A stretch of 64,000 nucleotides of DNA, taken from positions 31,559-95,558 of the IMG/VR virus record IMGVR_UViG_3300047325_000072. The stretch is one strand, 5' to 3'. How positions within the stretch are numbered: the first letter of the stretch is position 1; the number at the start of each line of letters is the position of its first letter. Positions 28,161 to 44,817 of this stretch are shown in pieces. The stretch is from a virus. A program made the position numbers and the translations under genes. The notes beneath the pieces are model-generated. The model was not told the DNA's origin. It searched no databases and saw only the letters and a program-made list of their open reading frames with translations.

Positions 28161-29213
28161 TTAGGCAAGGTCGAACTGAGTGCGCGAGGCGCCCGGAAAG
28201 CGCGTAGCGAAGGTCGAGCGCGCGCCTTGCGCAGCGTCGGCTGCTAGCCGCTCCGGCGACGCCGCGTGCCGTGCACCGGGGCGCGGGGTACGCTCGATCA
28301 GCAAACGCAACGCGCTCGGATCCTTGATCGTTGCCGCCCCGGTAATGCCGAGCGCGCGGCAACCGGCGCGAAGCACGTCCTCCGCCGAGTCGGCTGCAAG
28401 GCCCGGTAAGCCGCCTACCCAGGGGCGCACAAACTCGCGGGCATCGTCGATCGCGCGCTGCTCGCGGCGAAAATCAGCTTTCGCCTCTGCAATCGCCGCG
28501 TCCATCGCCTTTTTGTCCATTGTGCCTCCGGGCTTGGGCTGGCCCTTGAACGGAGGCGGCTCGTCAATCCCGCCGCCCTTAAATTCCTTGTTCGGGTCTT
28601 CCTCCTCGTCGTGAGCTTCCTCAGCCGGCGCCTCGCGGTGCATAGAAGCACCGATGGCCTCGTCAAGCCGGGCAAGCTCCTCCGGGGGCAATTTTCCCTT
28701 AAGCATCTCTTTGATGCGCGCCACGATCGCGGCCGGATCCTCAGCATCCTCGTCCTCACCCTCGCCGCCCATCGTAGCGGCATTCATGTCGGGATCGTCT
28801 TCCATGGTGTCCATTTCCGGCTCGTCGTCGCCGACGCGGGCGATAGCCTCCAGCATCTCAGTCACGTCGCTGATGTCGGCATCCTGGGCCAACCGGCCGC
28901 GCGTCTCGCGCTGTAGCGCGGCAACAAGATCGGGGATCTTGGAGGCGAAATTTTTCTGCGTAATCCCTTTCAAAAGGGGTGTAACGCGAATCTGCGCATC
29001 GGCAGCGAGCCGGGGCGCAAGGTAGGTACGCAGCGCGCCCGTAGCCAAAATGGCGGTGGGCGAGACGGTAGACTTAAACATCGTCTTCCTCTCACTATTT
29101 CCGCCGTTGGCGGGGGTTGCAAGCAACTTTGAATCCAGACCGAGCTTTTGAAGCGCCTCAGCAGGAGTCTTAAATCTTTTCTTTAATGCGGCCACGAGAC
29201 GGTCGCTCACCAT
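28161..29213 (-). CDS. Capsid scaffolding protein
   Basis: Acidic and helical; MDKKAMDAAI, AREFVRPWVG..AADSAEDV; lies between protease and decoration genes. Confidence 0.75.
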   Translation of the reverse strand: MVSDRLVAALKKRFKTPAEALQKLGLDSKLLATPANGGNSERKTMFKSTVSPTAILATGALRTYLAPRLAADAQIRVTPLLKGITQKNFASKIPDLVAALQRETRGRLAQDADISDVTEMLEAIARVGDDEPEMDTMEDDPDMNAATMGGEGEDEDAEDPAAIVARIKEMLKGKLPPEELARLDEAIGASMHREAPAEEAHDEEEDPNKEFKGGGIDEPPPFKGQPKPGGTMDKKAMDAAIAEAKADFRREQRAIDDAREFVRPWVGGLPGLAADSAEDVLRAGCRALGITGAATIKDPSALRLLIERTPRPGARHAASPERLAADAAQGARSTFATRFPGASRTQFDLA

Positions 29214-29263: not shown

Positions 29264-29449
29264 TTATTTAATCTTTCCGTGTTCACGGCCGATAAAAGCG
29301 GCTAAAGCCGCGGGATCGTGGACGCCTTTCTTGTGGGCCAGCGAGTTTTCTAGCTTACCGAAAGATTCGTCCTTAGCTCGCTTCATCTCTTTTGCCCAAG
29401 CATCAAAAGCGCGAGCTAGCTTGTCCCAACCTTGGGTGTTTTCCTTCAT
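29264..29449 (-). CDS. Small head-region protein
   Basis: ATGA overlap with protease stop; AKD followed by FGKLENSLAHKKGVHDPAALAAFIGR. Confidence 0.6.
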   Translation of the reverse strand: MKENTQGWDKLARAFDAWAKEMKRAKDESFGKLENSLAHKKGVHDPAALAAFIGREHGKIK

Positions 29450-31020
29450 TCTAACCAACTACTCCTGAGCGCCGCGGCAACGTCGTCCCAGCCGTAAGCG
29501 CGCGACATGGTGTCAGCGACTGTAACGTCTTTTCCTTGGCGCCCTTCTTCGACCTGGGCGAGATGCTGGAAACGAATACTGCACATTAAACCATCATAAT
29601 GCTCGCCGTCCGGCGACGTGCCCGGTTCCATTTTGGCAATATATCTGTAGCCTGGACTCAACTCTCTTTTAGAATTGGCCTCTACTTCATCGATAGCCTC
29701 TTGGGGCCAAAACACAAGTGAATTAGAAATAAAGGGTGCATCCCACCGGGCGTCAGTGCCGGTTGATCCAACAACAAGTTGTGCGTTCTTTGCATGTGTC
29801 TTTGCATCAACCCCTGCATGCTGCCCTAAAATCGGGATATTGTTCGCTGAGCGAACCGTCTCCGGCTTAGACAACTCTTCTGCCGATCGATAAAGCATGT
29901 ATTTCTTGTCAGGGTCTAGGCCCAGTTCTTCACTATTGGGGATTTCGTGACCGAAATACGGATCGACCCTCTCCATTGCGAGGTTGCTTCGTTCAACATG
30001 CAACCTTCCCTCAGCATCCTTAGAACGAACAGTGTCCTTATCCTGCCCGATATCCGCTCCGAACTCCCTCTCTCGGATACTATCCGCACGACGGGCAAGA
30101 TCTCCACGACCCTGGAGGCGCGCACGGCGCGCCGCGGCTAAGAGCAGGTTGCGGGTATATTTCCATTCGCCGTCACGTTTTTCCTTAACCGGATATTTTC
30201 GCTGACTTGGAATGAGAAACGCGCTTTCCGGCATATCCTCGCGGTGCGCCGTACTGTCAACCTCCTCGCGGGTTGTTTTCGAGAGTTTGCCTGTAGGATC
30301 GGAAGCGTCCTCTGCCTCCACATTTACCGTCGGCTGCCGGCTCTGCTCGCGCATTTGAGCAGCCGTGACATTGGTCAATCCACCTTCTTTATCGACCAGG
30401 TTCGAACGACTTAGATCGACGAAAGGCTGCAAGACCTTACCGGGACCAGTGCGAAACTCTACGTCAGCCGCATACCGCTTCGCCGTTCCGGCTAACGTTT
30501 CGCGTACCCCCGGATGGAGAGGGTCCGGCAAATCATCCAACCCGCGCCAGCAATAAGCGCTATGCTCGGCATTCAATTTCGGCTCAAACTCGTCGTCTAC
30601 CGGACACAAAAAGCTCGTATGATCCCAACCGTGCGGAGTGCGCGTTGTGCCTAGATTGATCCACTGCCCGTCGTCCTCCGGTACGTGTCCGATTTCCTCT
30701 TGGCTCTCACGGCGCACTGCGTCGTAAGCACCTTCTTCGCCGTCGCATTGGCCGCCCGGCCATGACCAGGTATCGGGCCAGTTCTTTTCATCCGAAGCGC
30801 GTTTTACGAAAAGAACACGTTTCGTTTTAGGCGAAAAATAACCCACCGAGGCAGCTCGGCCTAACGGCGGGACGCCACTATTAGGCGAAAGGTCATCTTG
30901 AGCATGTTCACCTTCGCCTTCTTCCTCGGAAATAAAGGTGATAAAACCTTGAAAGAAACGCTTTAGGTCGCCCAGCCAAGACATGCTGGCGGGGCTATCC
31001 TTAGCCCTGGCGGGTATCAT
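29446..31020 (-). CDS. Prohead protease (DUF2213-like) fused to an N-terminal NUDIX hydrolase and a small DUF6582-like domain
   Basis: Nudix box GGQCDGEEGAYDAVRRESQEEIG; MPESAFLIPSQRKYPV domain; protease region DAEGRLHV..PYFGHEIP..RELSPGYRY..HLAQVEEGRQG. Confidence 0.88.
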   Translation of the reverse strand: MIPARAKDSPASMSWLGDLKRFFQGFITFISEEEGEGEHAQDDLSPNSGVPPLGRAASVGYFSPKTKRVLFVKRASDEKNWPDTWSWPGGQCDGEEGAYDAVRRESQEEIGHVPEDDGQWINLGTTRTPHGWDHTSFLCPVDDEFEPKLNAEHSAYCWRGLDDLPDPLHPGVRETLAGTAKRYAADVEFRTGPGKVLQPFVDLSRSNLVDKEGGLTNVTAAQMREQSRQPTVNVEAEDASDPTGKLSKTTREEVDSTAHREDMPESAFLIPSQRKYPVKEKRDGEWKYTRNLLLAAARRARLQGRGDLARRADSIREREFGADIGQDKDTVRSKDAEGRLHVERSNLAMERVDPYFGHEIPNSEELGLDPDKKYMLYRSAEELSKPETVRSANNIPILGQHAGVDAKTHAKNAQLVVGSTGTDARWDAPFISNSLVFWPQEAIDEVEANSKRELSPGYRYIAKMEPGTSPDGEHYDGLMCSIRFQHLAQVEEGRQGKDVTVADTMSRAYGWDDVAAALRSSWLE

Positions 31021-31211
31021 CAACCAATAAATCCCTTGCAAGGCAAGTAATCGTATACTCCGGAATCAGGTTTACGACAGGCTTCCTTACGCTTGCCGCA
31101 ACGTTTGCACGCCTCAAAACTCTCGCCTTCTTTTGTCACTGCGCCAAAGTCATGGTTTACGCGTGTTGCTAATTCCCGCACAAAATTGTCAATTTCCGAC
31201 GATTTAGGCAT
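31020..31211 (-). CDS. Small Cys-rich hypothetical protein
   Basis: HDF..CKRCG..C..C; translationally coupled on both sides. Confidence 0.55.
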   Translation of the reverse strand: MPKSSEIDNFVRELATRVNHDFGAVTKEGESFEACKRCGKRKEACRKPDSGVYDYLPCKGFIG

Positions 31212-32273
31212 TTACGCTGGTACCAACAAACCGGCCGGCGGCCACGCGAATGCCGTACCCAGCGGATTGGGTGCTGAGACGGTGCGGATGTCGGTCGAAT
31301 GCCGGCAATCGACCATTACTAAACCAATGGGATCGACCAAACCGGCAATGGCAGGAGCGCGGCCAGCAGCAAGCATAGCGGCGTTGCGCTGCTCAGCGGT
31401 ATAGCCGGCGACTACGCTGCCCGGCAATTCCCAAGCTGACCACTGGACCTCACCGAGGTCACGGGCAAATATCATCCGCTCGCAATCACCGCGGATGTCT
31501 GTCGGCGCAATGTTGTAGTGCATCGACACAATGCAATCGAGATTAGGCGTCTGTGCCACGCCGTTGACCGAGCACGGCACCGGCAGGGTCAAGCGCTGAT
31601 AGGTGGTATATGCCGTTCCAGTCTGCGGTGTAGTTGGACATACAATCGCCATGCCGCCCTGCTGTGATCCTCCGATCGGCGTCGCGTTCCGCAAGGTACC
31701 ATCGACATCGTTGAGCCAGTTGAGCCAGGAAGGTTTCTGACAATCCGGGCTGAAAAACCAGACGCCATTGACATCGGCAGCCGAACCGTCGTGGGTGTAG
31801 AAATCACCGACACCGTGCGCGACCGATCCACTCGCGAGTTGAATGTCGCTGACCCGGAAACAATCACCGCCATCGTCCGGCGCGTCGTAGGTGAACCATG
31901 AACCCTGCGGATAGCTAGGGCCACCGTAATCGAAGGTGCGGATTGCGAATTGCACACCGTTGCGAGTGACAAGGTAACAGTCGCAGCGCTGCACATCCAA
32001 ACCGGCATCGAGCTTGTACCAGTAGATTGGGTCGGCTTCGGTTTGCGGACGGGTGTAAAGGTATCCCGGATCAAGTGGTGTCAGTGTCGGATCAGCCCCG
32101 ACCCCATGCACGAGGTAGCGCAGCATGTCGGCATCGGCCATACCGATCGGAACCGGAGCCGGAGCCGGCGGCGATGGTGTAGGAATGGGAGCCGGCGTCG
32201 GGGTCGGAGCCGATGACCCGCCGCACCCGGCGACCGCCAATGTGGACAACAGAAGCCCACGTCGCGATATCAC
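31212..32273 (-). CDS. Tat-signal lipoprotein with Pro/Thr linker
   Basis: RBS GGGAG and GTG at 32273; ISRRGLLLSTLAVAGC; PTPTPAPIPTPSPP linker. Confidence 0.72.
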   Translation of the reverse strand: MISRRGLLLSTLAVAGCGGSSAPTPTPAPIPTPSPPAPAPVPIGMADADMLRYLVHGVGADPTLTPLDPGYLYTRPQTEADPIYWYKLDAGLDVQRCDCYLVTRNGVQFAIRTFDYGGPSYPQGSWFTYDAPDDGGDCFRVSDIQLASGSVAHGVGDFYTHDGSAADVNGVWFFSPDCQKPSWLNWLNDVDGTLRNATPIGGSQQGGMAIVCPTTPQTGTAYTTYQRLTLPVPCSVNGVAQTPNLDCIVSMHYNIAPTDIRGDCERMIFARDLGEVQWSAWELPGSVVAGYTAEQRNAAMLAAGRAPAIAGLVDPIGLVMVDCRHSTDIRTVSAPNPLGTAFAWPPAGLLVPA

Positions 32274-32344: not shown

Positions 32345-32701
32345 CTATTGGCAATTGTGATTAAACGCCTGGACCGCTTTATCAAGCATAGACGGGATGA
32401 TCTTCCGCTGCGCCCAGATATCTGGGTCGTTTTTCTCCATCCGGGAAATCTCAGTATCCATAAGATCGCGGATTTCCGGCGTGATCTTGTAAACTGGCTG
32501 AGGCGGTGTGTCGCCGATCTTGATCAAATTACTTCCTCGGACCGAAACACCCTCGCCGATAGCTATCACGCATCGCCCCTCGGCGTTACTATTTGGGCCA
32601 ATCGCAAATGCAAATCCGGTCGGCATTGCGTCGGTAGCTGAAACCGGAACGGCTAGAGCGCAAGCCAGAGCCGTCGCCCCCAACAAACGAACGATCATCA
32701 T
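32345..32701 (-). CDS. Small secreted protein with YadA-head-like motifs
   Basis: Signal peptide; AIGPNSNAEGRCVIAIGEG. Confidence 0.55.
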   Translation of the reverse strand: MMIVRLLGATALACALAVPVSATDAMPTGFAFAIGPNSNAEGRCVIAIGEGVSVRGSNLIKIGDTPPQPVYKITPEIRDLMDTEISRMEKNDPDIWAQRKIIPSMLDKAVQAFNHNCQ

Positions 32702-34845
32702 TTCCCAACCCCCACATAGCGGCGAAGCGCCTCGACCTCGCGCTGCTGATCCTGCATGGCGGCGACAAGCACGGCAATCGCGTTCAGGTAGCGCACCTTG
32801 AGCGGCCGGCCGTCATTGTCGTTCGCGACGAGCCGGGGATCGATCTTAGCGACTTGCTCGGCGATCAGACCAAGTTGCTCGCCCTCAGCCTCGTTATCGT
32901 TGTACGCGAACGACACCGGCGCCATCGCCATGATCTCACTTAGCGCGCCTGTAAGCGGCTGAATTCCGTGCTTGAAGCGCTCGGACGAGACGAGGCAGGT
33001 GTTTGTGTTGTCGTAAGTTAGCAAACCGGCTGGGGAGCTTCCTGAGCTAAAGCAAACACTACCGGTTTGCGCGGCGGTAGAATTAGCCATCCCTGACACG
33101 GAAAGAGTGCCGCCGATCGTGGTAGCAGAAGTGCTCGGCGTTCCGGTACCGGTTGCCTTCCAGACACCCTCGATATTTATGGTATTGCTGCCACCCGATG
33201 TCAGGCTCGACTGTGTTCCCACCACAATGGCGTTACTATCGCTCCCGCCACCGCAGGTAACATTGCCGTCAGTACCGATAAAAATCAGCCTATGACCATT
33301 GGTGCATGTGGTAGTGCCAATGGTTGAGCCAAGAAACGTCAGGGCGAAGCCGGTAAGATTTCCATTGCCGGAAGCTGCTCCGACTACAACGGAGTTGTTC
33401 GGCCCCCGAGCACCGGAGGCCCCGCCAGTCTGGTTTCCGCCGATAATTACCGAGTTCCCAGACGTGCCGACTACATTATCAGCCTTAAAGCCGATAATGA
33501 CATCGCCATTCGAGTTTACTACTGAGGGAGCAACCCCAGACCCAAGTAAAACAGATTGGGTAGCGGAGGTTAGATTGAGAGTGGCAGCTTGGCTCCCTAT
33601 GATCACGTCATCGGTGCCTGAAATATTCTCAGCACTGCCCGTGCCGACGATTACATCACGTGCGGCCCCACTGGCAACATTTCTGCCAGTATCAGTTCCA
33701 AAGCACAGCATAGAGCCGCCCGATGTCCCGGTACCGCCGACACCGCAAGCATTCAAGCCGAGAGCTGTATTGAAATTACCGCCGCGTATTCCACTGCCTG
33801 CGCTATATCCAACAAATGTACTTTCAGTCCCGGAAAACCCTGGGTATGTCAGGCCGGCATTGAGGAACAGATTTCCTTGACCGTTTGAAAGGGTCGCATA
33901 TTGCAAACCAGCAACCAACTCTCCGAAGCTGAGAGTGTTAAACGTTGCCCCCGTACCGCTCCCCGTTGAAGACCCCTGGCTGATCGTGCCGCTGGGCGGA
34001 ATAGAATATATGCCGTTTGTAGTTGTCTGATACTTCAACGCTCCCATCGTCATCGCAACTTGTGCGCCGCTGAGGCCGCATCCGGTTACTGGCTCATTCG
34101 GAACAACTCCTGACGCTATTCCGGTCGGGTTTGTTGTATAGTCTCCGGCTACTGCGACCGTCAAAGCGCCCGTCAAAGCGTTGCCGCTTACAGTTCCGGC
34201 AAACTGTGCCTTGGTTCCTAGTCCGGTCGTAGCTGTAACAGTACACGCACCATTTGTTCCGCCCGACCCACCTGCGGCCACCGTACCGGATATTGCCTCG
34301 ATGTCCGTTACAGCGAGCGTAGCTTGAAGGGTTGCGGTCCCGCCGGTGATTGTGATGCCGTCCCCGACAGCATATAATGTTCCTGGAGCGGCGGTGTTGC
34401 CTCCACTTCCGACAAGTCCATAACTGAAATTAACGCTATTTAGGCTCGGGGCCGTGATCGTCCCGCCCAGCGTGTAGGTGCCTGTCGCCGTGCCGGACAG
34501 CACCGGCGACGCAATCGCCAGCCCACTAGGCAGCGTCGAGGATATCGACGGCACGCCGCTGCCGTTGGTAACAAGAACGCCGCTATTGCCCGTGGCAAGG
34601 TTTCCGAGGACACCGCCATTGTCATACAAAAGGCCATTTGGTGTGTCACCGACGATATTCGTCTTGCCTACAGCGATTGAGGCTGCCGAGCCAATCGACG
34701 AGATCAATCCGTTGACGCAATTCGTGGTAGAACCGTCACACTGGACAATACCCTTGCGAGTATTTGTTGCGGGATCGGTTTGCGCAAAGGCTAACGGCGA
34801 CCACAGGAAAACTACAGCAACAACCAGGAGCCGGCTAATGATCAT
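32698..34845 (-). CDS. Fibre/adhesin-like protein with Sec signal peptide and C-terminal S74 intramolecular chaperone
   Basis: RBS GGGAGG and ATG 34845; MIISRLLVVAVVFLWSPLAFA-Q; VIIG-type beta-roll repeats; SSERFKHGI..GLIAEQV..VRYLNAIAVLVAAMQDQ. Confidence 0.85.
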   Translation of the reverse strand: MIISRLLVVAVVFLWSPLAFAQTDPATNTRKGIVQCDGSTTNCVNGLISSIGSAASIAVGKTNIVGDTPNGLLYDNGGVLGNLATGNSGVLVTNGSGVPSISSTLPSGLAIASPVLSGTATGTYTLGGTITAPSLNSVNFSYGLVGSGGNTAAPGTLYAVGDGITITGGTATLQATLAVTDIEAISGTVAAGGSGGTNGACTVTATTGLGTKAQFAGTVSGNALTGALTVAVAGDYTTNPTGIASGVVPNEPVTGCGLSGAQVAMTMGALKYQTTTNGIYSIPPSGTISQGSSTGSGTGATFNTLSFGELVAGLQYATLSNGQGNLFLNAGLTYPGFSGTESTFVGYSAGSGIRGGNFNTALGLNACGVGGTGTSGGSMLCFGTDTGRNVASGAARDVIVGTGSAENISGTDDVIIGSQAATLNLTSATQSVLLGSGVAPSVVNSNGDVIIGFKADNVVGTSGNSVIIGGNQTGGASGARGPNNSVVVGAASGNGNLTGFALTFLGSTIGTTTCTNGHRLIFIGTDGNVTCGGGSDSNAIVVGTQSSLTSGGSNTINIEGVWKATGTGTPSTSATTIGGTLSVSGMANSTAAQTGSVCFSSGSSPAGLLTYDNTNTCLVSSERFKHGIQPLTGALSEIMAMAPVSFAYNDNEAEGEQLGLIAEQVAKIDPRLVANDNDGRPLKVRYLNAIAVLVAAMQDQQREVEALRRYVGVGK

Positions 34846-34991
34846 ACGGCCTCCCAATGGATTCCCTCTGCCGGGATCTCCATGTTGGCCGACATCAGAG
34901 AGCGCCAGATTACCCCGGCACACATAACAAGCTGATTGAGGGCATAGCCGCCTAGAGCAATCTGATTGGCGCGAGTATGGACAATGGGCAA
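34842..34991 (-). CDS. 49-aa CBM5/12-like protein (not in ORF track)
   Basis: RBS GAGGAG, TTG start; YALNQLVMCAGVIWRSLMSANMEIPAEGIHWEAV matches the Y..V..G..W....P....W pattern; stop overlaps the next ATG. Confidence 0.5.
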   Translation of the reverse strand: MPIVHTRANQIALGGYALNQLVMCAGVIWRSLMSANMEIPAEGIHWEAV

Positions 34992-35185: not shown

Positions 35186-35344
35186 CTATCGGATCCCTGG
35201 CATAAATATGTAAAGACCTAGTAGCAAAACCGCGACAAACGCGAAGAATATGTTGCTAGAGGAAAACTGTACGAGCGGCGGAAAAGGTAAAATCGTAAGT
35301 AGCCATAGAAACATGACTACAACAAAGAGGATTTCTAGGATCAT
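35186..35344 (-). CDS. 52-aa two-TM membrane protein (not in ORF track)
   Basis: MILEILFVVVMFLWLLTILPFPPLVQFSSSNIFFAFVAVLLLGLYIFMPGIR; ATGA overlap with MuF stop. Confidence 0.6.
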   Translation of the reverse strand: MILEILFVVVMFLWLLTILPFPPLVQFSSSNIFFAFVAVLLLGLYIFMPGIR

Positions 35345-36150
35345 ATGTTAAATCCTGCGACTACTGGACGGCTCACACATCGACAATTTATTAAAGAACC
35401 CGGAAAAACCCAATCTTCTTCGACTGGGTCCCACCAACCAGTGGAAAGATCAAATCGAACCTTATCGCGCCCCGCCTTTACATGCGAGGGCCGCGGAACT
35501 TTGCCACCCGCCGAATGAACCCAAACAGCTTCACGGATGCCAACCTCCATCGAGCGTATCCGCTGTAGGTTGGCGGTGGCTTTGTTATTCTGATCTCGGC
35601 TGATCAGCGCAGCCCGGCGCTTCGCCACACCGAACTGCGTCTGTAGCGTCTCAGCCAACGGCCCCATATCGCGACCCGCGGCCACTGAGCGCATAACCGC
35701 GCCGCCGATCTCCTCGAAATACCGCGAGGGGATCGATCGGATTAACCCCACATTTTCCTCGACGATCGCGTTCAGAGAATCGCGCATCGCGGCAGTCATC
35801 TTGAATTCAACCGTCATGCCGCCTTTGGCGAGGGATCGGCGTAATGCAGCGTCGCTGCGTTTTGCTGTTTCCTGAGCAAAATAAGCCGCAAGGTCCAGGG
35901 CTAACTGGTTAAATCGCCGTTGCCAGCGTCGTTTGAGTCGATTGACGGCGCGTCGCAACGCGGTAGCGGGTAGTTCATCCTGTGCTAGCAGCGCGACCTC
36001 GGGATTGTTAGCCCGATAGCACGCCTGTAACCAATAGGTTACAGAGCGCGACATCTCCTCGATAAGATCGTCCAACCGCCTTCTATAGCGTTGCTGTATG
36101 GCCGCGGAAGGACGAACCGGCGCGGCTGTTTTAAGTCGAGTGGTCGCCAC
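35341..36150 (-). CDS. Minor head protein (MuF / SPP1 gp7-like)
   Basis: ENVGLIRSIP, RRAALISRDQNNKA, W.HS....PRPSH, PGSLINCRC. Confidence 0.93.
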   Translation of the reverse strand: MATTRLKTAAPVRPSAAIQQRYRRRLDDLIEEMSRSVTYWLQACYRANNPEVALLAQDELPATALRRAVNRLKRRWQRRFNQLALDLAAYFAQETAKRSDAALRRSLAKGGMTVEFKMTAAMRDSLNAIVEENVGLIRSIPSRYFEEIGGAVMRSVAAGRDMGPLAETLQTQFGVAKRRAALISRDQNNKATANLQRIRSMEVGIREAVWVHSAGGKVPRPSHVKAGRDKVRFDLSTGWWDPVEEDWVFPGSLINCRCVSRPVVAGFNI

Positions 36151-37345
36151 GATAGTAGCTCTTTACTTCCGTGTAAGCCGCGCCATACGCGACATCGAGA
36201 GCCTGCTTTAGAGCGACACGCTCGCGGTTTAATCGCACGGCATAAAGATGTTCGTTTGTGGCAACTGCGTTTTCAGACAGGGAAGCAGGAACCAACGTCT
36301 CAAGTAAATCGAAAGTGCGCAAGTGCAACGCTTCCAATTCCCCGTAGAGCGCATCGGCCTGCGGGTTGGCGGGAAGAACGCGCCGAAGCTCGGTAAAGCG
36401 CTGATATTCACGCTCGATAAGCGCACGCTCAATTGCACCCAAACGAGCGCGCTTAACCGCGAGCACAGCTAAACGGTCCAGGACATCGCCGGGGGAAAGC
36501 GACGCCTGGACCGTTAGCACCGGGCCGGGGGACGCGGTCCGGGTTCCTACGGCGAGCAATGCCGCGATAACCTCTTCATGGTTGTGCTCAGTGAGCTTGA
36601 ACTCATCGGCGTCGTAATCATTGCCCGTGAACTTGGTAACATAGGCGTAAGGGTAAGTATCGAACGCCCAGGGGTGCTGCTTGCCCCCATCCACTGACGG
36701 CGTAACAAGCGACTTACGACACGGGAAAGCAGCCGCTGTCAAAATTGACATTACACCGCATTGCGGGCCGATTACCCAATCACTCGCCGCGGCACACGCG
36801 AATAAGTCGCCCAAAGACCAAGCTGGGTTATTTCGACGCGTGCTATAGCCGGCGCGCGTAAGAGCATAGTTCAAATTATCCCAAAACCAGGGCCAGTGAT
36901 TAGGCCAACTCCGGGCCTCCGGTACCAGCAACACAGTGCCCGGATCGCGCGGCGGCGTCGGTAGATTGCAGGGCGCTGCTAGCGGCACGTAATGCGGCAA
37001 GCCCAGAAGCACGCGATACATATCCGCCTGGCTAGCGTGGTAATGCGCAGTAAGCTGATCGATCCGCGCACCGGAACGAACAAAGCTCGGGTGAACGTAA
37101 AAAGGCCGCTCATCCTTTAGAAGGACGTTCTCGTAAGTGCGCTGAAAGTCCGGGTGGTTTTCAGCAAAAATGACGAGATGATCGTCGATCGTATAAGTGT
37201 GATCGAATAAATCCGCGATCGGCGCGTCGTGAGCCTTGACGACTAACTCGACATCCAAGCGATCATGGTATTGCTTGAAAGACTCCAAAAGCGCACAAGC
37301 AAGGTAAACGTCGCCTGTACCAAACATTGCGACGAGTCGGGTCAC
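36131..37345 (-). CDS. GT9 (heptosyltransferase-like) glycosyltransferase fused to a C-terminal DUF6165-like domain
   Basis: GTG start overlaps the upstream stop; GTGDVYL, VLLVPEARSW, LGDLFACAAASDWVIGPQCGVMSIL (GT9 pattern); C-terminal SPGDVLDRLAVL..NRERVALKQ..EVKSY. Confidence 0.65.
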   Translation of the reverse strand: MTRLVAMFGTGDVYLACALLESFKQYHDRLDVELVVKAHDAPIADLFDHTYTIDDHLVIFAENHPDFQRTYENVLLKDERPFYVHPSFVRSGARIDQLTAHYHASQADMYRVLLGLPHYVPLAAPCNLPTPPRDPGTVLLVPEARSWPNHWPWFWDNLNYALTRAGYSTRRNNPAWSLGDLFACAAASDWVIGPQCGVMSILTAAAFPCRKSLVTPSVDGGKQHPWAFDTYPYAYVTKFTGNDYDADEFKLTEHNHEEVIAALLAVGTRTASPGPVLTVQASLSPGDVLDRLAVLAVKRARLGAIERALIEREYQRFTELRRVLPANPQADALYGELEALHLRTFDLLETLVPASLSENAVATNEHLYAVRLNRERVALKQALDVAYGAAYTEVKSYYRGDHST

Positions 37346-38229
37346 AGAGCGAGCGCAGCGCCCAAGCAGAAATCGGGCGAAAAGCGCTTTCGGAAACGAT
37401 CCAGTTGCGCGCAATAGTGATCTTGCCAGTCGTCTTTGACTTTTCGTACATCGTTATAGAAAGACTCGACCGAATCGGAGAAATCGATCACCTCCTTCCA
37501 CTCTCCTGAATGCACGTGCGGCTCGGCCACGACTGGCCTACCCATATGTAGGGCTGTAGCGCAGCGAGAAGATGAAATAATACCTTGCGAATCGTGCGCT
37601 CGGATCTGCGGTATTACACAACAACGACGCATCTCAGTATCACGCTCAGCGGCGCTTAATTTAATAAATGGAAGTATGTACCAAGTACCGCCAATTTTAT
37701 TGATAATGCTTTGCCGGCGCGGCGTTAACTGGCCATAAAAGCCATAATCGAACTCAGGTACCGGATAGTCTTCGCCGACGAATAAGAGTTCTTGGGCAAA
37801 TCCTAACTCCACATAAGCGGCCGGGGCAAACTTTCCGTACCAATTTGTAATATGAGATCCGGGCGCCAGGTGCCAAATCGTTTCGGCATAGCGTGCCGCG
37901 TCCGGAAAGATCGCCTGACGAGCGTCCATAGCATTGTCTAACCGGCCATTGAACGTGCCGCTTGGGGTCGGTTCCTCGGTGGCAATATAAATGAAACGAG
38001 AACCTAGAAAGAAAGCGCTTCTTATCATTTCAAGCGTAAATGGATCGGCGAAACTCTCATAGAGAACGTTTAAAGTATCCGAGTTTTCATCGGAAATATC
38101 CTCGTATTGCGAGGATTCGGAAGTCTGATGCCCGAGTTCGCGTAACTGAGATGAAAGAATGCGCGTCAAATCCTCAATGCAACGGCGCCCATCCTCACAA
38201 TGATTAAAAGTATTGAAGTGAAAATTCAT
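37342..38229 (-). CDS. Putative glycosyltransferase (GT-B), paralogue of 22549-23535
   Basis: ATEEPT, IWHLAPG, AYVELGF, DYGFYGQLTPRR, RDTEMRR, SSSRCATALHMGRPVVAEPH. Confidence 0.72.
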   Translation of the reverse strand: MNFHFNTFNHCEDGRRCIEDLTRILSSQLRELGHQTSESSQYEDISDENSDTLNVLYESFADPFTLEMIRSAFFLGSRFIYIATEEPTPSGTFNGRLDNAMDARQAIFPDAARYAETIWHLAPGSHITNWYGKFAPAAYVELGFAQELLFVGEDYPVPEFDYGFYGQLTPRRQSIINKIGGTWYILPFIKLSAAERDTEMRRCCVIPQIRAHDSQGIISSSRCATALHMGRPVVAEPHVHSGEWKEVIDFSDSVESFYNDVRKVKDDWQDHYCAQLDRFRKRFSPDFCLGAALAL

Positions 38230-38230
38230 T

Positions 38231-38947
38231 TTATCGTATCAACAATCTCAACAAATCCCGCGTGGCAGTGTCAGTCGGATAACGATTGCCCAGACAACGC
38301 GCCTCTAACGGCTCGATCTTATCCCAAACGTAAGCCGCTGGGCGTTCAGAAATCCCCCACCGAAACCACCAAATACCGCGCTCTCGACTACGAGGTTTCA
38401 GGCCCCGATGCGGACGCATCGTATCGGAGAGAAAGACCGTTCCCGCAGGGCCATAAATACGTCGAAGAATGTTATTGGGACCAGCCAATTCTTGAGGTCC
38501 GTCTTCGTCCGTAAGCACATCAGTCAAGAAAACGAACATCGCTAGAAAACGATCGTCGTCTTGGTCGCAATGCAACTCTTGAATATCCGCACGCGTTGCA
38601 GCAGGGCCAGGACGCGTCCAAAAAGCATTCATGGAGTACGCAACTGACCGTTCGACATCGAGATATTCAGCGGCAAATGGTGTATATTCTAGCGCGATCT
38701 CTAGAAGATGTGGCGCGCGAATCGCGTCCCATGTATGGACGCAAAGGCACTCGGACGTTTGAGCATCATTACGGCCTACCGGCCCGCGATGAAGATTACG
38801 CGCTGTCTGTGGCACATGCGCGTCAGCATAAACCGGACGGCTTAAAAGAAAGGTATTAGTCTCGGCGATCTTTTCAGGCGAAAGCTGAGCCACGACCGAG
38901 TAGCCCTGAGTTCGAAGCTCGTCTAAAATCAAACTTTTGTCAAACAA
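38231..38947 (-). CDS. 2OG-Fe(II) dioxygenase (PhyH-like)
   Basis: ELRTQGY, ELHCDQDD (HxD), MFVFLTDV..EDGP, GPAGTVFLSDT..PHRG..P..RER. Confidence 0.8.
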   Translation of the reverse strand: MFDKSLILDELRTQGYSVVAQLSPEKIAETNTFLLSRPVYADAHVPQTARNLHRGPVGRNDAQTSECLCVHTWDAIRAPHLLEIALEYTPFAAEYLDVERSVAYSMNAFWTRPGPAATRADIQELHCDQDDDRFLAMFVFLTDVLTDEDGPQELAGPNNILRRIYGPAGTVFLSDTMRPHRGLKPRSRERGIWWFRWGISERPAAYVWDKIEPLEARCLGNRYPTDTATRDLLRLLIR

Positions 38948-39169
38948 GCGATATCAACCCACTCGGGTCACGGCGGAACACCCTCGTCGTAACCGTATTC
39001 ATACTCGTCAGTCGCTTCGTCATATCCGCGCAAGTAGTGAACCCAAGTCTTATACTCTTTAGACGGGTCCGCAGTATTGAAGCGAAATTCGGTGGTAAAA
39101 TGCCGACTGCAAGCCGTCCCAGTCAATCATCCCGCCCATTCTACGTAACCTCTTGTGAGTAAAGTATCC

Positions 39170-39574
39170 TCAAGCAACTGGATTAGTTTCGGACCAATGT
39201 GGTTGAGTGTGGCGTTCCGTGGAACATTGAATATGTCCGCATATTTCACAAGCTGACGCAGTCCCGATATCAGCTAAATAATCCACTTCAATTGAAGCGC
39301 CTCGACAGCGCGCGGCGCGCACTTCAAAAGCAAATATTGCAGTTTGTAGGGAAGCAATAATAATATCGGTTTCCGCGCAGCTTTTCTGCCCCTTCATGTA
39401 AAGGGCGCGATCCAGGCAAGCGCGCAATACTTCTTGGGTCAATACGCCAGGATGACTGCCGACATTACCAGGATAATTACGGCCTGCGCGTTTGACGAAA
39501 ACTAAACGCTGCACATAAGTAGTATCATCAATACCTTGCAAATCGTAGACATGACCGGGGTCGATAACTTTCAA
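39170..39574 (-). CDS. Tad1/Acb2-like putative anti-defence sponge protein
   Basis: PGHVYDL..LVFVK..GVLTQEVLRACLDR..SCAETDIIIASLQTAIFAFEVR resembles the Tad1 pattern (H.Y; I.F.K; GV...LL....DR; REN..A....EEA..W..RR). Confidence 0.5.
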   Translation of the reverse strand: MKVIDPGHVYDLQGIDDTTYVQRLVFVKRAGRNYPGNVGSHPGVLTQEVLRACLDRALYMKGQKSCAETDIIIASLQTAIFAFEVRAARCRGASIEVDYLADIGTASACEICGHIQCSTERHTQPHWSETNPVA

Positions 39575-39727
39575 TACGGGCCTCCGCCGGAAACTCAGAA
39601 TCTCAGGTCAACCGGGTCGCCGTATTCGCCGAGATCGGCGCATGACCCCAATCGGCAGGGGTAAGACCCTTGAATTCCGGATGGATTGACGTGTCAACCG
39701 CTGTTTCGCCGAGATATCGCGGCACTG

Positions 39728-40294
39728 TTATCCCCCCGCGGACATATAAGCGGTACCAACCTTATCCCCAACGATTGTCAGCCCGGAAAGCTCCGCTAAG
39801 AACCTATGGACCTGTACTTCGGGATAAGCCGAACGCGGCAGTGCGTCGTGGAAAGCGATTATGCCGCCGGGGCGCACGAGCCGAGCATAAGTGGCATAAT
39901 CAGCGCGAACGTCGTTGTAGCTATGCCCTGCGTCGATAAAAAGCAAATCATAGGGCGCGTATGATTCAGCTAACGCAACGGCACGCACATCATGGGTATC
40001 GGCACCAATTTCCGGCGGTAGATCGTCTATTAGAACGCGTCCAAGATCAATCGAAACAACACGATCGAAGTACAAGCGCCAAAGATCGTGACTAGCAACG
40101 CACGGACCTATTCCAAGTTGAAGGCAACTATCAAACTTTGTCGATGCTTTGATAATTGCCTCGAACTCTGCTCGAACCTGCATTACTGCCGGCAGGTAAT
40201 TAGGAGTACCATCGGCCGCAGCATGATCGTCATGCCAACCCCAGCGTGGAGAATATTTCTGCGATCTCAATAAAGTGTCGTAGGTGTTCATCAC
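39728..40294 (-). CDS. Class I SAM-dependent methyltransferase (Methyltransf_24-like)
   Basis: CLQLGIG, VVSID, YDLLFIDAGHSYNDVRADY..LVRPGGIIAFHD. Confidence 0.88.
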   Translation of the reverse strand: MMNTYDTLLRSQKYSPRWGWHDDHAAADGTPNYLPAVMQVRAEFEAIIKASTKFDSCLQLGIGPCVASHDLWRLYFDRVVSIDLGRVLIDDLPPEIGADTHDVRAVALAESYAPYDLLFIDAGHSYNDVRADYATYARLVRPGGIIAFHDALPRSAYPEVQVHRFLAELSGLTIVGDKVGTAYMSAGG

Positions 40295-42099
40295 TTTAAC
40301 TCAAACAACGAACACCCCGCGCTAGGGGATATGAGTCCTGCTACCAACTCGCATCCATGCGGTGAAAGAAAGTTTACGCAAACCGCGCACCGCTTAGTCG
40401 GATCACTAGAAAGATAAACGTAATGTACATCCTCCTTCGCGTCTTTCTCTTGGTTCAGCATAATATCGGGAGCAAAACCCCCACTAACCGGCTTTCCGAA
40501 GTTGGCAGCCTTGCTGGAAAGAGAACTCGCGAGACGGTTGGAAGGATCACGAGGATGAAGTTCGCCGCCCGGCGTCAAAGTTTCCGTGCCAGGATGCCCA
40601 ACGGGATCAATACCAGGCTCAGACGTTGGTAACGAATCAGAAAGATCGATAGTTGAGAAAGGAGATTGATGATCTACGGCTATTTGTTCCCGGACCTCCT
40701 CCGGCGCGACAGCGCCCATCGCGACAGCCGCGTCGTAGATATCCATCTTTGTCTTCTGAACGCCTACCAAGGCAACCTCATCCAACTGCCAAAGCGGTTT
40801 GAACTCGGCTACAATCTCCCGATCAACTTCACCCCAAAGATGCAACATCAAAAAGCCTAGGCAGGCGTGCAGATTAGGACGAAAAAGCAATTCCTGAAAG
40901 GCAGCAATCCAATCGTAAAAGGTTCGAATTTCCCCCTCGGACGAAGCATTCAGCCCGGCGGGCTGAATACCTAGAAGTTTTACTAAAGGAATGCGTCCAA
41001 TAGCAGCCATGTGCTCCTGCGTCTGGGCTTGGAGCGCATCCAAAGAGGCTAGCGACGCAGAAATGTTCTTGAATTCTTCAGAGTTCTTGTCTATCGCCAG
41101 GACGCCGGAATTGTCGCGAAGAATATTGAACAATTCCAGCCGAGAGAAAAGCTGTTCACCCCCAACCTGGAGAGTGGACTGCATGTCCGTCGATAGAACA
41201 AATACCGAAAATGAACGAATGATATCCGCGACAGCCTGCCTTGTACGCAGCCAATTATCTACATAAGGTTTTGCCATCTGCGACATCGCCAAGCCGCCGA
41301 AAGCATAGGTAGGCTTTAGCAGGTCCGGCGCCTCTCGCCCAACAAATGTCAATAATGACGAGCGGTGAATAGCGTTACCCATGACAAACCATGTCACAGG
41401 CTTATACCAATCCTCTTTCAAAGGGTTGGCCGCATCATATTGTGTCGGGTATGTCCAAACCGGCTCGATTGGCCGAAATGCCTTCAAACTGCCCTTTGGG
41501 ACCCTCATACGGGATAATTCATTCCATCCCGTACCGATATCTAATGGCAATTCCTCCCGATCGTCCGTGCGCCCGGTATCAATGTAGATATGCCCGCGGC
41601 CAAAGAAACCGTCGTAAGCCGCACATTTCTGAAACGCGCCACGAAGATCGAACTCTTCCATGGCGTCGTTAAGCTGCTTGATACGATCAACCTTCTTGTC
41701 AACCGTCGATGTAGATTTAAGCTCTATCCACTCCCGTGTCATTTCCGACGCGATAACCTCGGTCAGGGCGCGGTACTCCGGCACCTGAGCCAATTCGCTC
41801 AATGCCGCATAGCCAAAAAATGTGTATCCCGAGTTGATAGACCCGGAGAGAATTGACCCCGCTGTCCAAGCGTTCAGTTCGCCGAAAGCGGAATCCATCG
41901 CGAGCGTTGGCTCGGCCGGCTTAACACCGGCCGGGAAGTCAGGCAGACGCAACTTGCCCGGAGCAGCGACGGCGACAGACGAGCGCCGATCGCCCGGCAA
42001 CTCTAACCAGCGCCGCAAGCGCCCCCCGCGCGCGCCGGCAACTACGTCAGGCGTAATGCGCTTCAACCAGGACTGAAAAAATGAATACTGTTCGGGCAT
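40291..42099 (-). CDS. Portal protein (DUF1073-like) with C-terminal HiPIP-like domain
   Basis: FFGYAALSELAQVPEYR, EMTREWI, IPLVKLLGIQPAGLNASSEGEIR; C-terminus RCAVCVNF..GCELVAGLISP..GCSLF. Confidence 0.9.
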   Translation of the reverse strand: MPEQYSFFQSWLKRITPDVVAGARGGRLRRWLELPGDRRSSVAVAAPGKLRLPDFPAGVKPAEPTLAMDSAFGELNAWTAGSILSGSINSGYTFFGYAALSELAQVPEYRALTEVIASEMTREWIELKSTSTVDKKVDRIKQLNDAMEEFDLRGAFQKCAAYDGFFGRGHIYIDTGRTDDREELPLDIGTGWNELSRMRVPKGSLKAFRPIEPVWTYPTQYDAANPLKEDWYKPVTWFVMGNAIHRSSLLTFVGREAPDLLKPTYAFGGLAMSQMAKPYVDNWLRTRQAVADIIRSFSVFVLSTDMQSTLQVGGEQLFSRLELFNILRDNSGVLAIDKNSEEFKNISASLASLDALQAQTQEHMAAIGRIPLVKLLGIQPAGLNASSEGEIRTFYDWIAAFQELLFRPNLHACLGFLMLHLWGEVDREIVAEFKPLWQLDEVALVGVQKTKMDIYDAAVAMGAVAPEEVREQIAVDHQSPFSTIDLSDSLPTSEPGIDPVGHPGTETLTPGGELHPRDPSNRLASSLSSKAANFGKPVSGGFAPDIMLNQEKDAKEDVHYVYLSSDPTKRCAVCVNFLSPHGCELVAGLISPSAGCSLFELK

Positions 42100-43940
42100 T
42101 AGCGCCGCCGGGCCATCGCACGCGCGCGCTCTAAGACCGCCGAATTGATCGCGAGGCCACCGCCGGCAAGCTCCGGGCGCGGCCCCGGATCGACCGGGGA
42201 GGAAGCTAGAAAGCGTTGCATTGGCGACGGCACAGCCGCACGCACAAGCACGCCGTTGGTAATAACGATAGGCTGCGGCGCGCGCGCAAAACGGATCATC
42301 GCCGCGTCTGCCAGGTTAGGAGAACGCGAGCCGTCCGGTTTCTTATCTATCAAAATCTTCCCGACGCCGTTTACCGAGTAAGTGGGTTGCGAAAGTTGCG
42401 AAGCTAATTCCATCTTTAGCTCGCAACCTTCATGGATCGAAACGATATCGTCGGGATGACACGGAACACCCTCTACAACCCAGCGATAGACGTTCCGAAA
42501 CCGGCGACGAAGTGCCCACCAACCCTGAGCCTTTCGATTAGCAAAAAAGTCCTTATTGAAACGTCCCGGCTCGTCCTGTTTATCGGGTTCAAAAGGTGCC
42601 TCAGAGCCACGAAACGGCAAAACTTCCACCCGCGGACGATGTTGCGTTAGCCGACGCTCGTTAATAACGCGCGCGTCGCCCCGGACACCGGCCCCGAGGC
42701 CATCCGAATCGAAACGATATTCCGTAACCCCGAGCGTGTCACAAAGGTCAAAGCATCGCTGCGTGGTGCCGAAAATGTCGTCACCTTTCCCCGACCATTC
42801 CGCGATGTGCTGTACTTCCACCCCGAGCGTGGCAATAAAGGCGTTGCGGTCCATCCCCTCGTCAGCGACATCGAGGGCCGCGGCGAGCTTTCCACTAGGC
42901 TCAATCCCGAGCTTAGCGCAAGCGCCGATAGCAGCGAGCACCCAAGGGCGCGGGATAAGGACGCCCTCTACCGAGGCGGAGTAATCGATATCAATTTCTT
43001 GAGCGACCACAGCCGCGGAAAACGCCTCAGAAACCTGCTTGTTGTACCAAGCGTCGTCTTTTCGAGGATCGTCACGCCAATGAAAAGTAAAGACCTTTAT
43101 GCGTCCCGAATGGCGGTTTTGCTCGAAAGGATTACCTAAGCCGGCCGCTGTCGAAATATCATGCCGGGCATAGGTCGTTGACATCAACGACGCCTCAGCT
43201 AGATGAGGCCGCTCTAAGTGCGCGGCCTCGTCAACAAAGTACAATGCCGTGCGGTCCGACCGACCGATATTGTCGCCCCCGTCACCCGCAATAAACGAGC
43301 CGGTGCTAGGAAACGTAATACGCATGGAGGGGGCCATGCTACGATTCCAGCCACCCGTCCACTCGTTCGGGAGATGCTCCAAAAAGAGCCGCCCTTTTTC
43401 CAAGAGGGACTTAGGCTGCCCAATCGTATCCACATTGCGTGCCAAATTGGAGCCGAAACCAGCAGACATCTGCCGCGAGAATAAGCAAAGCGTGCATGCT
43501 GTTGCAACCGCCAGCCAGGAAACTCCCGACTCGCGGGATTTTTCCGTAAGCGCGCGGTTTCGACGGCGCCACGATTCTATGGCAAACTCTACCCAATCAA
43601 CCTGCCGGGGAAAGAGAAGGAATGGGATCGTAGCCGGCAGACCGATATCTAGGTTACGCGGCTCGAACGTAGATCCCCAATCGGTTATGAATTCAGCCGG
43701 ATAGTGTAAATAGTAAACCTTAGCAGGCTCGATTACACTAGGATCTTCTCGGATCCTTTCTAGGGCAGCCTCCCGGTGCTCGGCTACTCTGTCGTAGTCA
43801 GGCGCTTTCCAATCAAACTCAAGCGCATCCGGCCCCCGGATATAGGCAACAGCGTCACTCGGCGACCATACGTGGCCGGATCGTGCCAGGGACCGGCGCC
43901 GGTATTCCCTCTCGGCCAATTGCAACCGGCGCGCCTCCAT
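42099..43940 (-). CDS. terL: Terminase large subunit
   Basis: Walker A EKSRESGVSW, Walker B YFVDEAAH, nuclease ALDVADEG and SPNLADA; start uncertain (43940 or 43964), overlapping terS. Confidence 0.93.
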   Translation of the reverse strand: MEARRLQLAEREYRRRSLARSGHVWSPSDAVAYIRGPDALEFDWKAPDYDRVAEHREAALERIREDPSVIEPAKVYYLHYPAEFITDWGSTFEPRNLDIGLPATIPFLLFPRQVDWVEFAIESWRRRNRALTEKSRESGVSWLAVATACTLCLFSRQMSAGFGSNLARNVDTIGQPKSLLEKGRLFLEHLPNEWTGGWNRSMAPSMRITFPSTGSFIAGDGGDNIGRSDRTALYFVDEAAHLERPHLAEASLMSTTYARHDISTAAGLGNPFEQNRHSGRIKVFTFHWRDDPRKDDAWYNKQVSEAFSAAVVAQEIDIDYSASVEGVLIPRPWVLAAIGACAKLGIEPSGKLAAALDVADEGMDRNAFIATLGVEVQHIAEWSGKGDDIFGTTQRCFDLCDTLGVTEYRFDSDGLGAGVRGDARVINERRLTQHRPRVEVLPFRGSEAPFEPDKQDEPGRFNKDFFANRKAQGWWALRRRFRNVYRWVVEGVPCHPDDIVSIHEGCELKMELASQLSQPTYSVNGVGKILIDKKPDGSRSPNLADAAMIRFARAPQPIVITNGVLVRAAVPSPMQRFLASSPVDPGPRPELAGGGLAINSAVLERARAMARRR

Positions 43941-44817
43941 CGACGCGCGTAAACTGGCCCTCAATTTCTACTCCGTTCGCTTCAAGGTCGGCCTCAAGCT
44001 CCTCGTCGGTCATTTCCTCGATAGACTTCGAAGAATATTTGTTTGGGTCCGGGAGGTGCTTCGCCAGTTGTACCTCCGCAAACTCCTGATCGCGCATCAA
44101 AACTTCAAAACCGCCGTTGGCAAGGCGACGCACTCCCTTGTACAACGCGCGACCGCCCGGTGATAATGACCGCGTATCATGAAAAATTGGCGTTGCCATA
44201 CCATGGCCGTGACACTCCGGGCAGGAATGATTCGAATTCGCCTCAACAATCTGCCCATGGGCTTTAGCCATTTCAACGAAATCCGGTCCGCGCATCGGAA
44301 ATCGATTGATCGAGTATCCGGCGCCCCCCTGCTCGTCGAAGTCCGTCCGATCCTGCGGCGAAAACTCAAGCATATTCTCTTGATGTGCGCTTCGCGCCGC
44401 ACGAAATTCGCCATCCGTCATCTGGAGACTGTGATCTATACCCCAACAATAGCGACACGCCACCATCCACATTTCGGTAAGCTCGCGCGGATCGGCGTCA
44501 ACGAGCACTTTCCAGCGATTGATAACGTAATCCGCGTGAATTTGGACGCGCGTTGCGCGACGCGCCCTGCTGAGCGCGATAGCTCTCTGAATTTTACGGC
44601 GAGAGAGAAGCCTAGGACCGGACTTCTCTGGCTCCGCGATGCCCGCACGCCGGGCCGCCTCGATAGGATCGAAATCAACCAGATACTCTTCGGCAAACCA
44701 TGCCTCTTTCGGCTCCAGCACAAAATCGCGCTGTGAGGGGGGGCGAAGATAACGGGCGCTAGGCGCAGGGCGTTTAGGCTCCGGAGTAGCGCGGATATAT
44801 CCAGAGGGGAGCGGCAT
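43855..44817 (-). CDS. terS: Terminase small subunit with CxxC/CxxC insert
   Basis: FAEEYLVDFD..EAARRAG; CRYCWG...CPECHGHG; IEEMTDEELE. Confidence 0.88.
   Translation of the reverse strand: MPLPSGYIRATPEPKRPAPSARYLRPPSQRDFVLEPKEAWFAEEYLVDFDPIEAARRAGIAEPEKSGPRLLSRRKIQRAIALSRARRATRVQIHADYVINRWKVLVDADPRELTEMWMVACRYCWGIDHSLQMTDGEFRAARSAHQENMLEFSPQDRTDFDEQGGAGYSINRFPMRGPDFVEMAKAHGQIVEANSNHSCPECHGHGMATPIFHDTRSLSPGGRALYKGVRRLANGGFEVLMRDQEFAEVQLAKHLPDPNKYSSKSIEEMTDEELEADLEANGVEIEGQFTRVDGGAPVAIGREGIPAPVPGTIRPRMVAE

Follow-up and report, generated by a model that had tools for sequence, protein, structure and literature searches.

Why should the portal protein of a phage end in a domain that resembles a high-potential iron-sulfur protein (HiPIP)? 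This question is raised by a stretch of 64,000 nucleotides of viral DNA (hereafter the window), which covers positions 31,559 to 95,558 of the IMG/VR virus record IMGVR_UViG_3300047325_000072. The textbook role of HiPIPs is that of periplasmic electron carriers in phototrophs and in oxidisers of iron or sulfur. The record, 95,558 bp in length and rated 100% complete by CheckV, belongs to an uncultured phage and contains a single HiPIP-like copy. This copy is located at 40291..40464 on the minus strand, the 3' end of the portal open reading frame (ORF; 57 codons and the stop), where an original prediction made from the letters of the window had placed a HiPIP-like [4Fe-4S] domain. Homology to solved HiPIPs at the sequence and profile level, the predicted fold and the neighbours in the ESM atlas all agreed with that placement. 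The portal tail is probably a minimal PioC-type module of the HiPIP family, carried as optional and swappable cargo of the head interior. The features of the portal gene are as follows.

40291..42099, minus strand: portal gene (PF06381, PHROG portal families, homology to 8fvh and 9b41)
40735..41802, minus strand: Phage_portal_3 core, residues 100-455 (Pfam)
40447..40635, minus strand: linker rich in Pro, Gly and Ser, about residues 489-551, joining the portal crown to the HiPIP module (composition)
40474..40548, minus strand: conserved linker motif DPSNRLASS..KAANFG..SGGF, residues 518-542 (alignment of P0001, P0011 and P0043)
40294..40446, minus strand: HiPIP-type module, residues 552-602 (sequence, profile and predicted-fold searches)

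According to the ORF list and its translation, the portal gene encodes 602 amino acids (aa) followed by a TGA stop (40291-40293). Its assignment as a portal, already made in the original prediction, was confirmed by the family hidden Markov model (HMM), by solved dodecameric homologues and by a terminase neighbour. The Pfam model Phage_portal_3 (DUF1073, PF06381) matched residues 100-455 with an E-value of 6.7e-71 (239 bits against a cut-off of 33.8), and PHROG portal families matched the ORF as well. Homology was found to the solved dodecameric portals E217 gp19 (8fvh, E 4.8e-35) and 9b41. A large terminase gene is immediately adjacent upstream, where a small terminase gene was also found.

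The portal tail is homologous to PioC-type minimal HiPIPs

Within the last 57 aa of the portal, Cys571, Cys574, Cys583 and Cys596 (codons read in the DNA at 40387-89, 40378-80, 40351-53 and 40312-14) form the predicted pattern C-x2-C-x8-C-x12-C, and Tyr560 sits 11 residues ahead of the first Cys. The four-Cys pattern occurred once in the six frames of the window, compared with a mean of 0.06 in 100 shuffles. Its spacing falls within the HiPIP ligand spacing C-x2-C-x(8-16)-C-x(12-14)-C and is identical to that of PioC, and the aromatic residue expected at C-x2-[FYW] is present as Phe599. Judged from the sequence, the residues that wrap the [4Fe-4S] cubane in HiPIPs, namely the four Cys together with Tyr, Phe, Pro, Val, Gly, Ile and Pro, are intact in the tail, the module residues being Tyr560, Cys571, Cys574, Phe577, Pro580, Cys583, Val586, Gly588, Ile590, Pro592, Cys596 and Phe599. 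A Pro/Gly/Ser linker with an APD motif had been noticed ahead of the domain, and indeed the stretch of residues 489-560 holds nine Pro, eight Ser and eight Gly among its 72 residues, with APD preceding the domain.

To identify relatives of the tail, phmmer searches were run against the PDB (177,635 sequences) and against 1.84 billion representative proteins. The two best PDB matches of the tail alone were both HiPIPs, PioC (6xyv, E 0.018) and the Rhodothermus protein 3h31 (E 0.09), and the alignment to PioC was ungapped across all four Cys. The wider search returned 95 matches at E ≤ 1e-3, about 87 of which had the same Cys spacing. Several of them carry twin-arginine signals (for example P0016, matched at 8e-6) and are thus ordinary cellular HiPIPs. 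In an alignment of the tail with 57 small relatives, cellular HiPIPs included (A1), the four Cys were invariant and Tyr, Phe, Pro, Val and Gly near-invariant, and the resulting profile matched HiPIPs only in the PDB (PioC at 2.1e-14). Because A1 contains cellular HiPIPs, a second alignment (A4) was built from the window and 69 segments taken from IMG/VR viral contigs only, and the Tyr ahead of the first Cys was near-invariant in this alignment too. The viral-only profile found PioC at 2.6e-13, 3h31 at 1.2e-6 and 1isu at 1.5e-4, with nothing else in the PDB below E 0.29, and it recovered dozens of 92-130-aa PF01355 proteins from cellular contigs. In the ESM atlas, the cluster nearest to the tail was named HiPIP (0.92, 204 of 256 features), and the next two clusters were mostly viral. 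The tail gave no match of its own in PHROGs, tblastn against GenBank phages returned noise only, and a homologue search with residues 530-602 at near lengths returned only the query itself. Taken together, homology of the tail to PioC-type minimal HiPIPs is well supported by these sequence comparisons. The original prediction had likened the domain to a Rhodopila-type HiPIP; the family was right, whereas the closest solved relative is PioC of Rhodopseudomonas palustris rather than a Rhodopila protein.

A structural comparison had also been proposed, and it gave the same answer. AlphaFold2 with an alignment modelled the domain (residues 21-70 of the modelled tail) at a predicted local distance difference test (pLDDT) score of ~96, and 18 of the 19 Foldseek matches of this model in the PDB were HiPIPs. 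VIA-align Z scores were 6.9 for 3h31, 6.8 for 1isu (root-mean-square deviation 1.2 Å over 48 residues) and 6.4 for PioC (6xyv), the deviations from these three structures spanning about 1.2-3.1 Å; the HiPIP fold is thereby assigned to a predicted model. Compared with PioC and other short HiPIPs (1isu, 3h31 and 1hlq), the predicted fold superposed at 1.2-2.1 Å. A single-sequence AlphaFold model of the tail (pLDDT 47) was discarded.

The portal-HiPIP fusion recurs in related portals

No stop interrupts the reading frame between the portal core and the last Cys, the linker included. The composition shows no break, and inspection by eye revealed no plausible ribosome-binding site or start immediately ahead of the module. 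As the original prediction had suggested, DUF1073 portals were surveyed for the same C-terminal fusion, which was found in four metagenomic portals of this Pfam family (P0011, P0043, P0180 and L236), all colinear with the window portal at 42-54% identity. The linker motif DPSNRLASS..KAANFG..SGGF is common to the window portal, P0011 and P0043, the linker being otherwise poorly conserved. In a quick tree of the family portals with approximate likelihood-ratio (SH-aLRT) support values, the window portal and P0043 were sisters (96) inside a five-member clade (99), which also holds P0011, L001, a portal with a different 325-aa extension, and L035, a plain portal. None of the closest 31 IMG/VR portals has a HiPIP tail.

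Other portals of the family also vary in length. P0011 contains a Hint/intein insertion at residues ~380-650 (Pfam Hint_2 and Intein_splicing), and L016, L021 and L028 are 200-300 aa longer than the core. The C-termini of the portals L001-L031 are of two kinds, short acidic tails and unrelated extensions of 150-740 aa, the latter including one with an HExxH-like motif (L019) and one of 738 aa (L030). In L001-L031 the portal C-terminus behaves as a general cargo slot.

The module changes carrier within one portal lineage

Two further head genes of the window have homologues that matter for the distribution of the module.

35341..36150, minus strand: MuF-type head morphogenesis protein (Pfam Phage_Mu_F; phrog_324, E 5.8e-73)
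29446..31041, minus strand: NUDIX-DUF2213 head maturation protease (Pfam NUDIX and DUF2213; phrog_2229, E 3.3e-68)

To see how the module is carried in relatives, the surroundings of portals of this family were examined at 166 loci, which fall into 85 distinct groups. The HiPIP module was present in only five of the 85 groups, and about 94% of the portals are without it. Where it occurs, its position differs. In L236 it forms the C-terminus of the portal. The L237 portal terminates in a Pro-rich tail, and the next gene, which overlaps the portal stop by ATGA, encodes the HiPIP module followed by MuF; its MuF part is 51% identical to the window MuF, and its HiPIP part 38% identical to the window tail. 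In L176 the N-terminal part of MuF contains the module. The window MuF gene itself has no HiPIP. In L254, L259/L035, L044, L070, L081 and L058, the module lies just N-terminal of the DUF2213 domain of proteins that are homologues of the window NUDIX-DUF2213 protease (45-54% identity by BLASTP and phmmer), with the domain order NUDIX-HiPIP-DUF2213 in L044 and L254. MuF directly follows the portal in about 60 related loci; the module's place is therefore the boundary of portal and MuF, where either gene may include it.

The NUDIX hydrolase domain of the window protease spans its residues 62-183, and relatives have the HiPIP between or beside the NUDIX and DUF2213 domains. With portal, MuF and DUF2213 protease as interchangeable head-interior carriers in one lineage, the HiPIP reads, by sequence comparison, as an optional, swappable head-cargo module and not as part of the portal machine.

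The module occurs on many other phage head proteins

A degenerate DNA pattern for the module was found at no fewer than 120 places in IMG/VR, and all 80 loci that were fetched were confirmed by profile. About half of these 80 loci are free-standing genes of 55-130 aa, many of the free-standing copies being 55-100 aa long, and 36 distinct larger hosts were counted among the fetched loci. Besides Phage_portal_3, the module was carried by portals of at least five further Pfam families (Phage_portal, P22, SU10, Mu and SPP1). Further carriers are DUF2213 and S78 head proteases, protease-capsid fusions, MuF, and polyvalent-type proteins with NUDIX, InPase or ART domains. A protein-database search with the profile returned the same list of carriers, and a viral structure library added hosts with Zeta-toxin, XkdF, SppA-protease and ParB/Srx domains. 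No ParB/Srx partner was found in the genome of the window.

The place of the module on the carrier varies as well. A C-terminal HiPIP recurs on SPP1-type (L055) and HK97-type portals (L096, L106 and L032), P22-type and SU10-type portals have the module as an internal insertion, and on S78 proteases it is N-terminal. Among cultured phages, a single isolate was identified in 50,697 GenBank phage records, Synechococcus phage S-SRM01. Such near-absence from cultured phages is probably why no publication on these modules was found.

Proposed role and alternative explanations

The original prediction had inferred that a dodecameric portal could carry redox clusters, or release the domain as injected cargo. 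Portal C-termini face the capsid lumen in solved portals, and twelve modules would therefore reside inside the head, each on a flexible tether of ~60 residues. Cellular HiPIPs receive their cluster in the cytoplasm before they are exported through twin-arginine translocation (Tat), so a cytoplasmic phage protein can be loaded too. The phage domain has no Tat signal and heads assemble in the cytoplasm, and the host ISC/SUF machinery would thus load a [4Fe-4S] cluster onto the portal tail there. HiPIP clusters are buried and oxygen-tolerant, a property that would suit an extracellular particle. Since the same module is found on MuF, DUF2213, other portals, S78 and polyvalent proteins, the carrier seems to provide only delivery into the head interior. 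The module may be released by the head protease, or it may stay near the portal and leave with, or act on, the first DNA to exit. It is our speculation that a small oxygen-tolerant redox or iron-sulfur unit would in this way be available at the start of infection. A broader proposal, put forward tentatively, is that many tailed phages package a redox-active, oxygen-tolerant HiPIP, using portal, MuF or prohead protease as the carrier according to what is available, and release it into the host with the leading DNA. It might then donate or accept electrons, or supply clusters, from the very outset of infection, for instance alongside co-packaged Nudix-type enzymes or to counter a redox-dependent host defence.

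Several observations weigh against the assignment of the tail as a HiPIP-type module of head cargo. An aromatic residue, Tyr or Trp, right before the last Cys belongs to a PROSITE-type HiPIP signature, and the tail has Gly595 where most HiPIPs have this aromatic; the replacement of the usual Trp had been noticed correctly in the original prediction. In the 69 viral copies this position is Trp in 37, Val in 14, His in five, Thr in four, Ala in three and Cys in two, with Leu, Tyr, Gly and Lys once each, and the rare Gly could leave the cluster more exposed or labile. The suggested check with the Pfam HIPIP HMM (PF01355; gathering cut-off 22 bits) failed, as the tail was not matched even at E ≤ 10. 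However, the solved HiPIP PioC scored only 14.6 bits in the same control, relatives with Tat signals scored 13.8-24 bits, and 19 of 58 relatives were matched at E ≤ 0.1. Because PioC itself falls below the cut-off, the Pfam model is insensitive to the minimal subfamily and its negative result for the tail says little. The alignment used for the AlphaFold model contained true HiPIPs, so that the model is not independent of the homology. The neighbours of the free-standing small copies are mixed; many belong to head and packaging families, and the association with the head is only loose. Considered as a shared protease site, the linker motif did not recur, either in other carriers or elsewhere among the window proteins. 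Finally, iron-sulfur binding, redox potential and virion location are all inferred.

The possibility that an assembly or frameshift error joined a separate small HiPIP gene to the portal draws on the many free-standing small HiPIP genes in viral contigs and on L237, where the module begins a separate gene overlapping the portal stop. Such an error is extremely improbable given the uninterrupted frame to the last Cys, the even composition, the lack by eye of a ribosome-binding site or start before the module, and the four independent metagenomic portals that are colinear to the end, two of them with the linker motif. It is also quite unlikely that the four Cys bind zinc in a zinc-knuckle-like mini-domain that owes its HiPIP likeness to fold ancestry only. 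Small CxxC domains in phage proteins are very often zinc ribbons, and the shielding Trp before the last Cys is lost from the window tail; yet both the Cys spacing and the core residues other than Cys (Tyr, Phe, Pro, Val, Gly, Ile and Pro) match the PioC type and are near-invariant in viral copies, the relatives with Tat signals are ordinary HiPIPs, and the sequence and fold searches yielded only HiPIPs, with no zinc ribbon above noise.

Two further explanations concern what the domain is for. A structural metal knot would stay on the portal in the head for the life of the virion without a redox role, as a plug, a holder of the DNA end or a gauge of head fullness near the channel. In keeping with it are the twelve copies tethered where the portal has its crown, the insertion of the module inside P22-type and SU10-type portals of some phages, and the tail-tip [4Fe-4S] of lambda gpL, an earlier example of a virion cluster that is not known to have a redox role. 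We consider it unlikely, as prohead proteases, protease-capsid fusions and polyvalent proteins, none of which remain at the portal, carry the module too, many copies are free-standing genes of 55-100 aa, and the great majority of related portals manage without it. Alternatively, the module might be a sensor that gates head assembly or DNA release through damage to its cluster by oxidation, nitric oxide or iron limitation. Iron-sulfur clusters commonly serve as sensors, and with Gly ahead of the last Cys the cluster may be exposed. Against this, no type of [4Fe-4S] is more stable to oxygen or less reactive than the HiPIP cluster, the shielding Trp is kept in most viral copies, and gating finds no support in the sequence data, all of which makes a sensor highly unlikely. 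Swappable head cargo of the PioC type remains the reading that we prefer.

Relation to known systems

PioC of Rhodopseudomonas palustris TIE-1 (6xyv) has the same C-x2-C-x8-C-x12-C spacing, upstream Tyr, Phe after the CxxC and aromatic residue three positions past the last Cys as the phage tail, and both score below the Pfam threshold. In contrast to PioC, a free periplasmic carrier, the phage domain forms residues 552-602 of a structural protein, has no signal peptide, and has Gly for Trp before the last Cys. The Tat-exported periplasmic way of life that is normal for HiPIPs does not apply to it.

Accessory domains fused to portal or MuF proteins have been described as 'polyvalent proteins', a cargo thought to enter the host (Iyer et al. 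2017, PMC5512222). Like these fusions, the HiPIP is found on portal and MuF proteins, is probably packaged in the head, and co-occurs with InPase, ART-PolyVal, NUDIX and Zeta-toxin domains. Unlike them, it is a single non-enzymatic module of redox type instead of an enzyme chain, and that paper makes no mention of HiPIP, iron-sulfur or cysteine. A four-Cys [4Fe-4S] domain in a virion protein is known from the lambda tail-tip protein gpL (Tam et al. 2013; cryo-EM in PMC10721106). The gpL domain has a different Cys spacing, is located in the tail tip and not in the head, is oxygen-sensitive and is universal in its family, whereas the HiPIP module is optional; gpL did not turn up in the sequence or fold searches with the tail.

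The cultured relative, A0A879R316 of Synechococcus phage S-SRM01 (67 aa), shares the family and the fold of the tail, as Foldseek matched it at E 1.7e-5 and tblastn with a typical viral copy gave 9e-9. Its gene is small and free-standing, its label is purely automatic, and the S-SRM01 genome paper does not mention it. A few viral proteins are labelled as HiPIP-domain proteins by the automatic rules of UniProt, and no paper on HiPIP modules in phage structural proteins was found in full-text literature outside subscription journals. What is described here is a known HiPIP fold in a new and recurrent viral context.

For phage structure and bioinorganic chemistry alike, it comes as a surprise that a minimal HiPIP fold recurs on phage head-interior proteins as a module that can be swapped. 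It suggests that virions of many uncultured phages hold iron-sulfur clusters inside the capsid, virion clusters having so far been described only for tail tips. The change of carrier within one lineage (portal C-terminus, MuF N-terminus or protease N-terminus) amounts to a natural experiment in which selection would keep encapsidation and not the carrier. If the module is indeed injected, a family of 'photosynthetic electron carriers' would gain a second, viral life as an effector. With its 50 residues, the module is a concrete and easily expressed target.

Gene neighbourhood of the portal

The packaging genes upstream of the portal were assigned as follows.

42099..43964, minus strand: large terminase, 621 aa (nuclease half matched to solved large terminases, 8dkr at E 1.4e-21 and Sf6 gp2)
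43855..44817, minus strand: small terminase (Pfam Terminase_2, E 4.8e-10)

The large terminase had no Pfam match at E ≤ 0.01 and was recognised only through its nuclease half. On the other side of the portal, the GTG start of the next gene and the portal stop share 4 nt. Five genes (36131..40294, minus strand) separate the portal from MuF, one of which encodes a Methyltransf_24-like protein (39728..40294). The ORFs of 134, 238, 295 and 427 aa in this interval had no Pfam or PHROG match, and PDB searches with those of 238, 295 and 427 aa gave no significant match. As MuF directly follows the portal in relatives, the five-gene block of the window has been inserted into the head module.

Between MuF and the protease, the block of head genes also contains a 741-aa protein (32698..34923, minus strand) with a C-terminal Peptidase_S74 (endosialidase chaperone) domain, which is typical of tail spikes or fibres. 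In addition, phrog_30637, a profile of 1119 positions annotated as 'unknown function', matched three proteins of the window, namely the portal (profile positions 1-253), the DUF2213 protease (717-906) and a 350-aa scaffold-like protein at 28161..29213 (966-1105). A profile spanning all three implies that some phages encode portal, DUF2213 protease and scaffold-like protein as a polyprotein.

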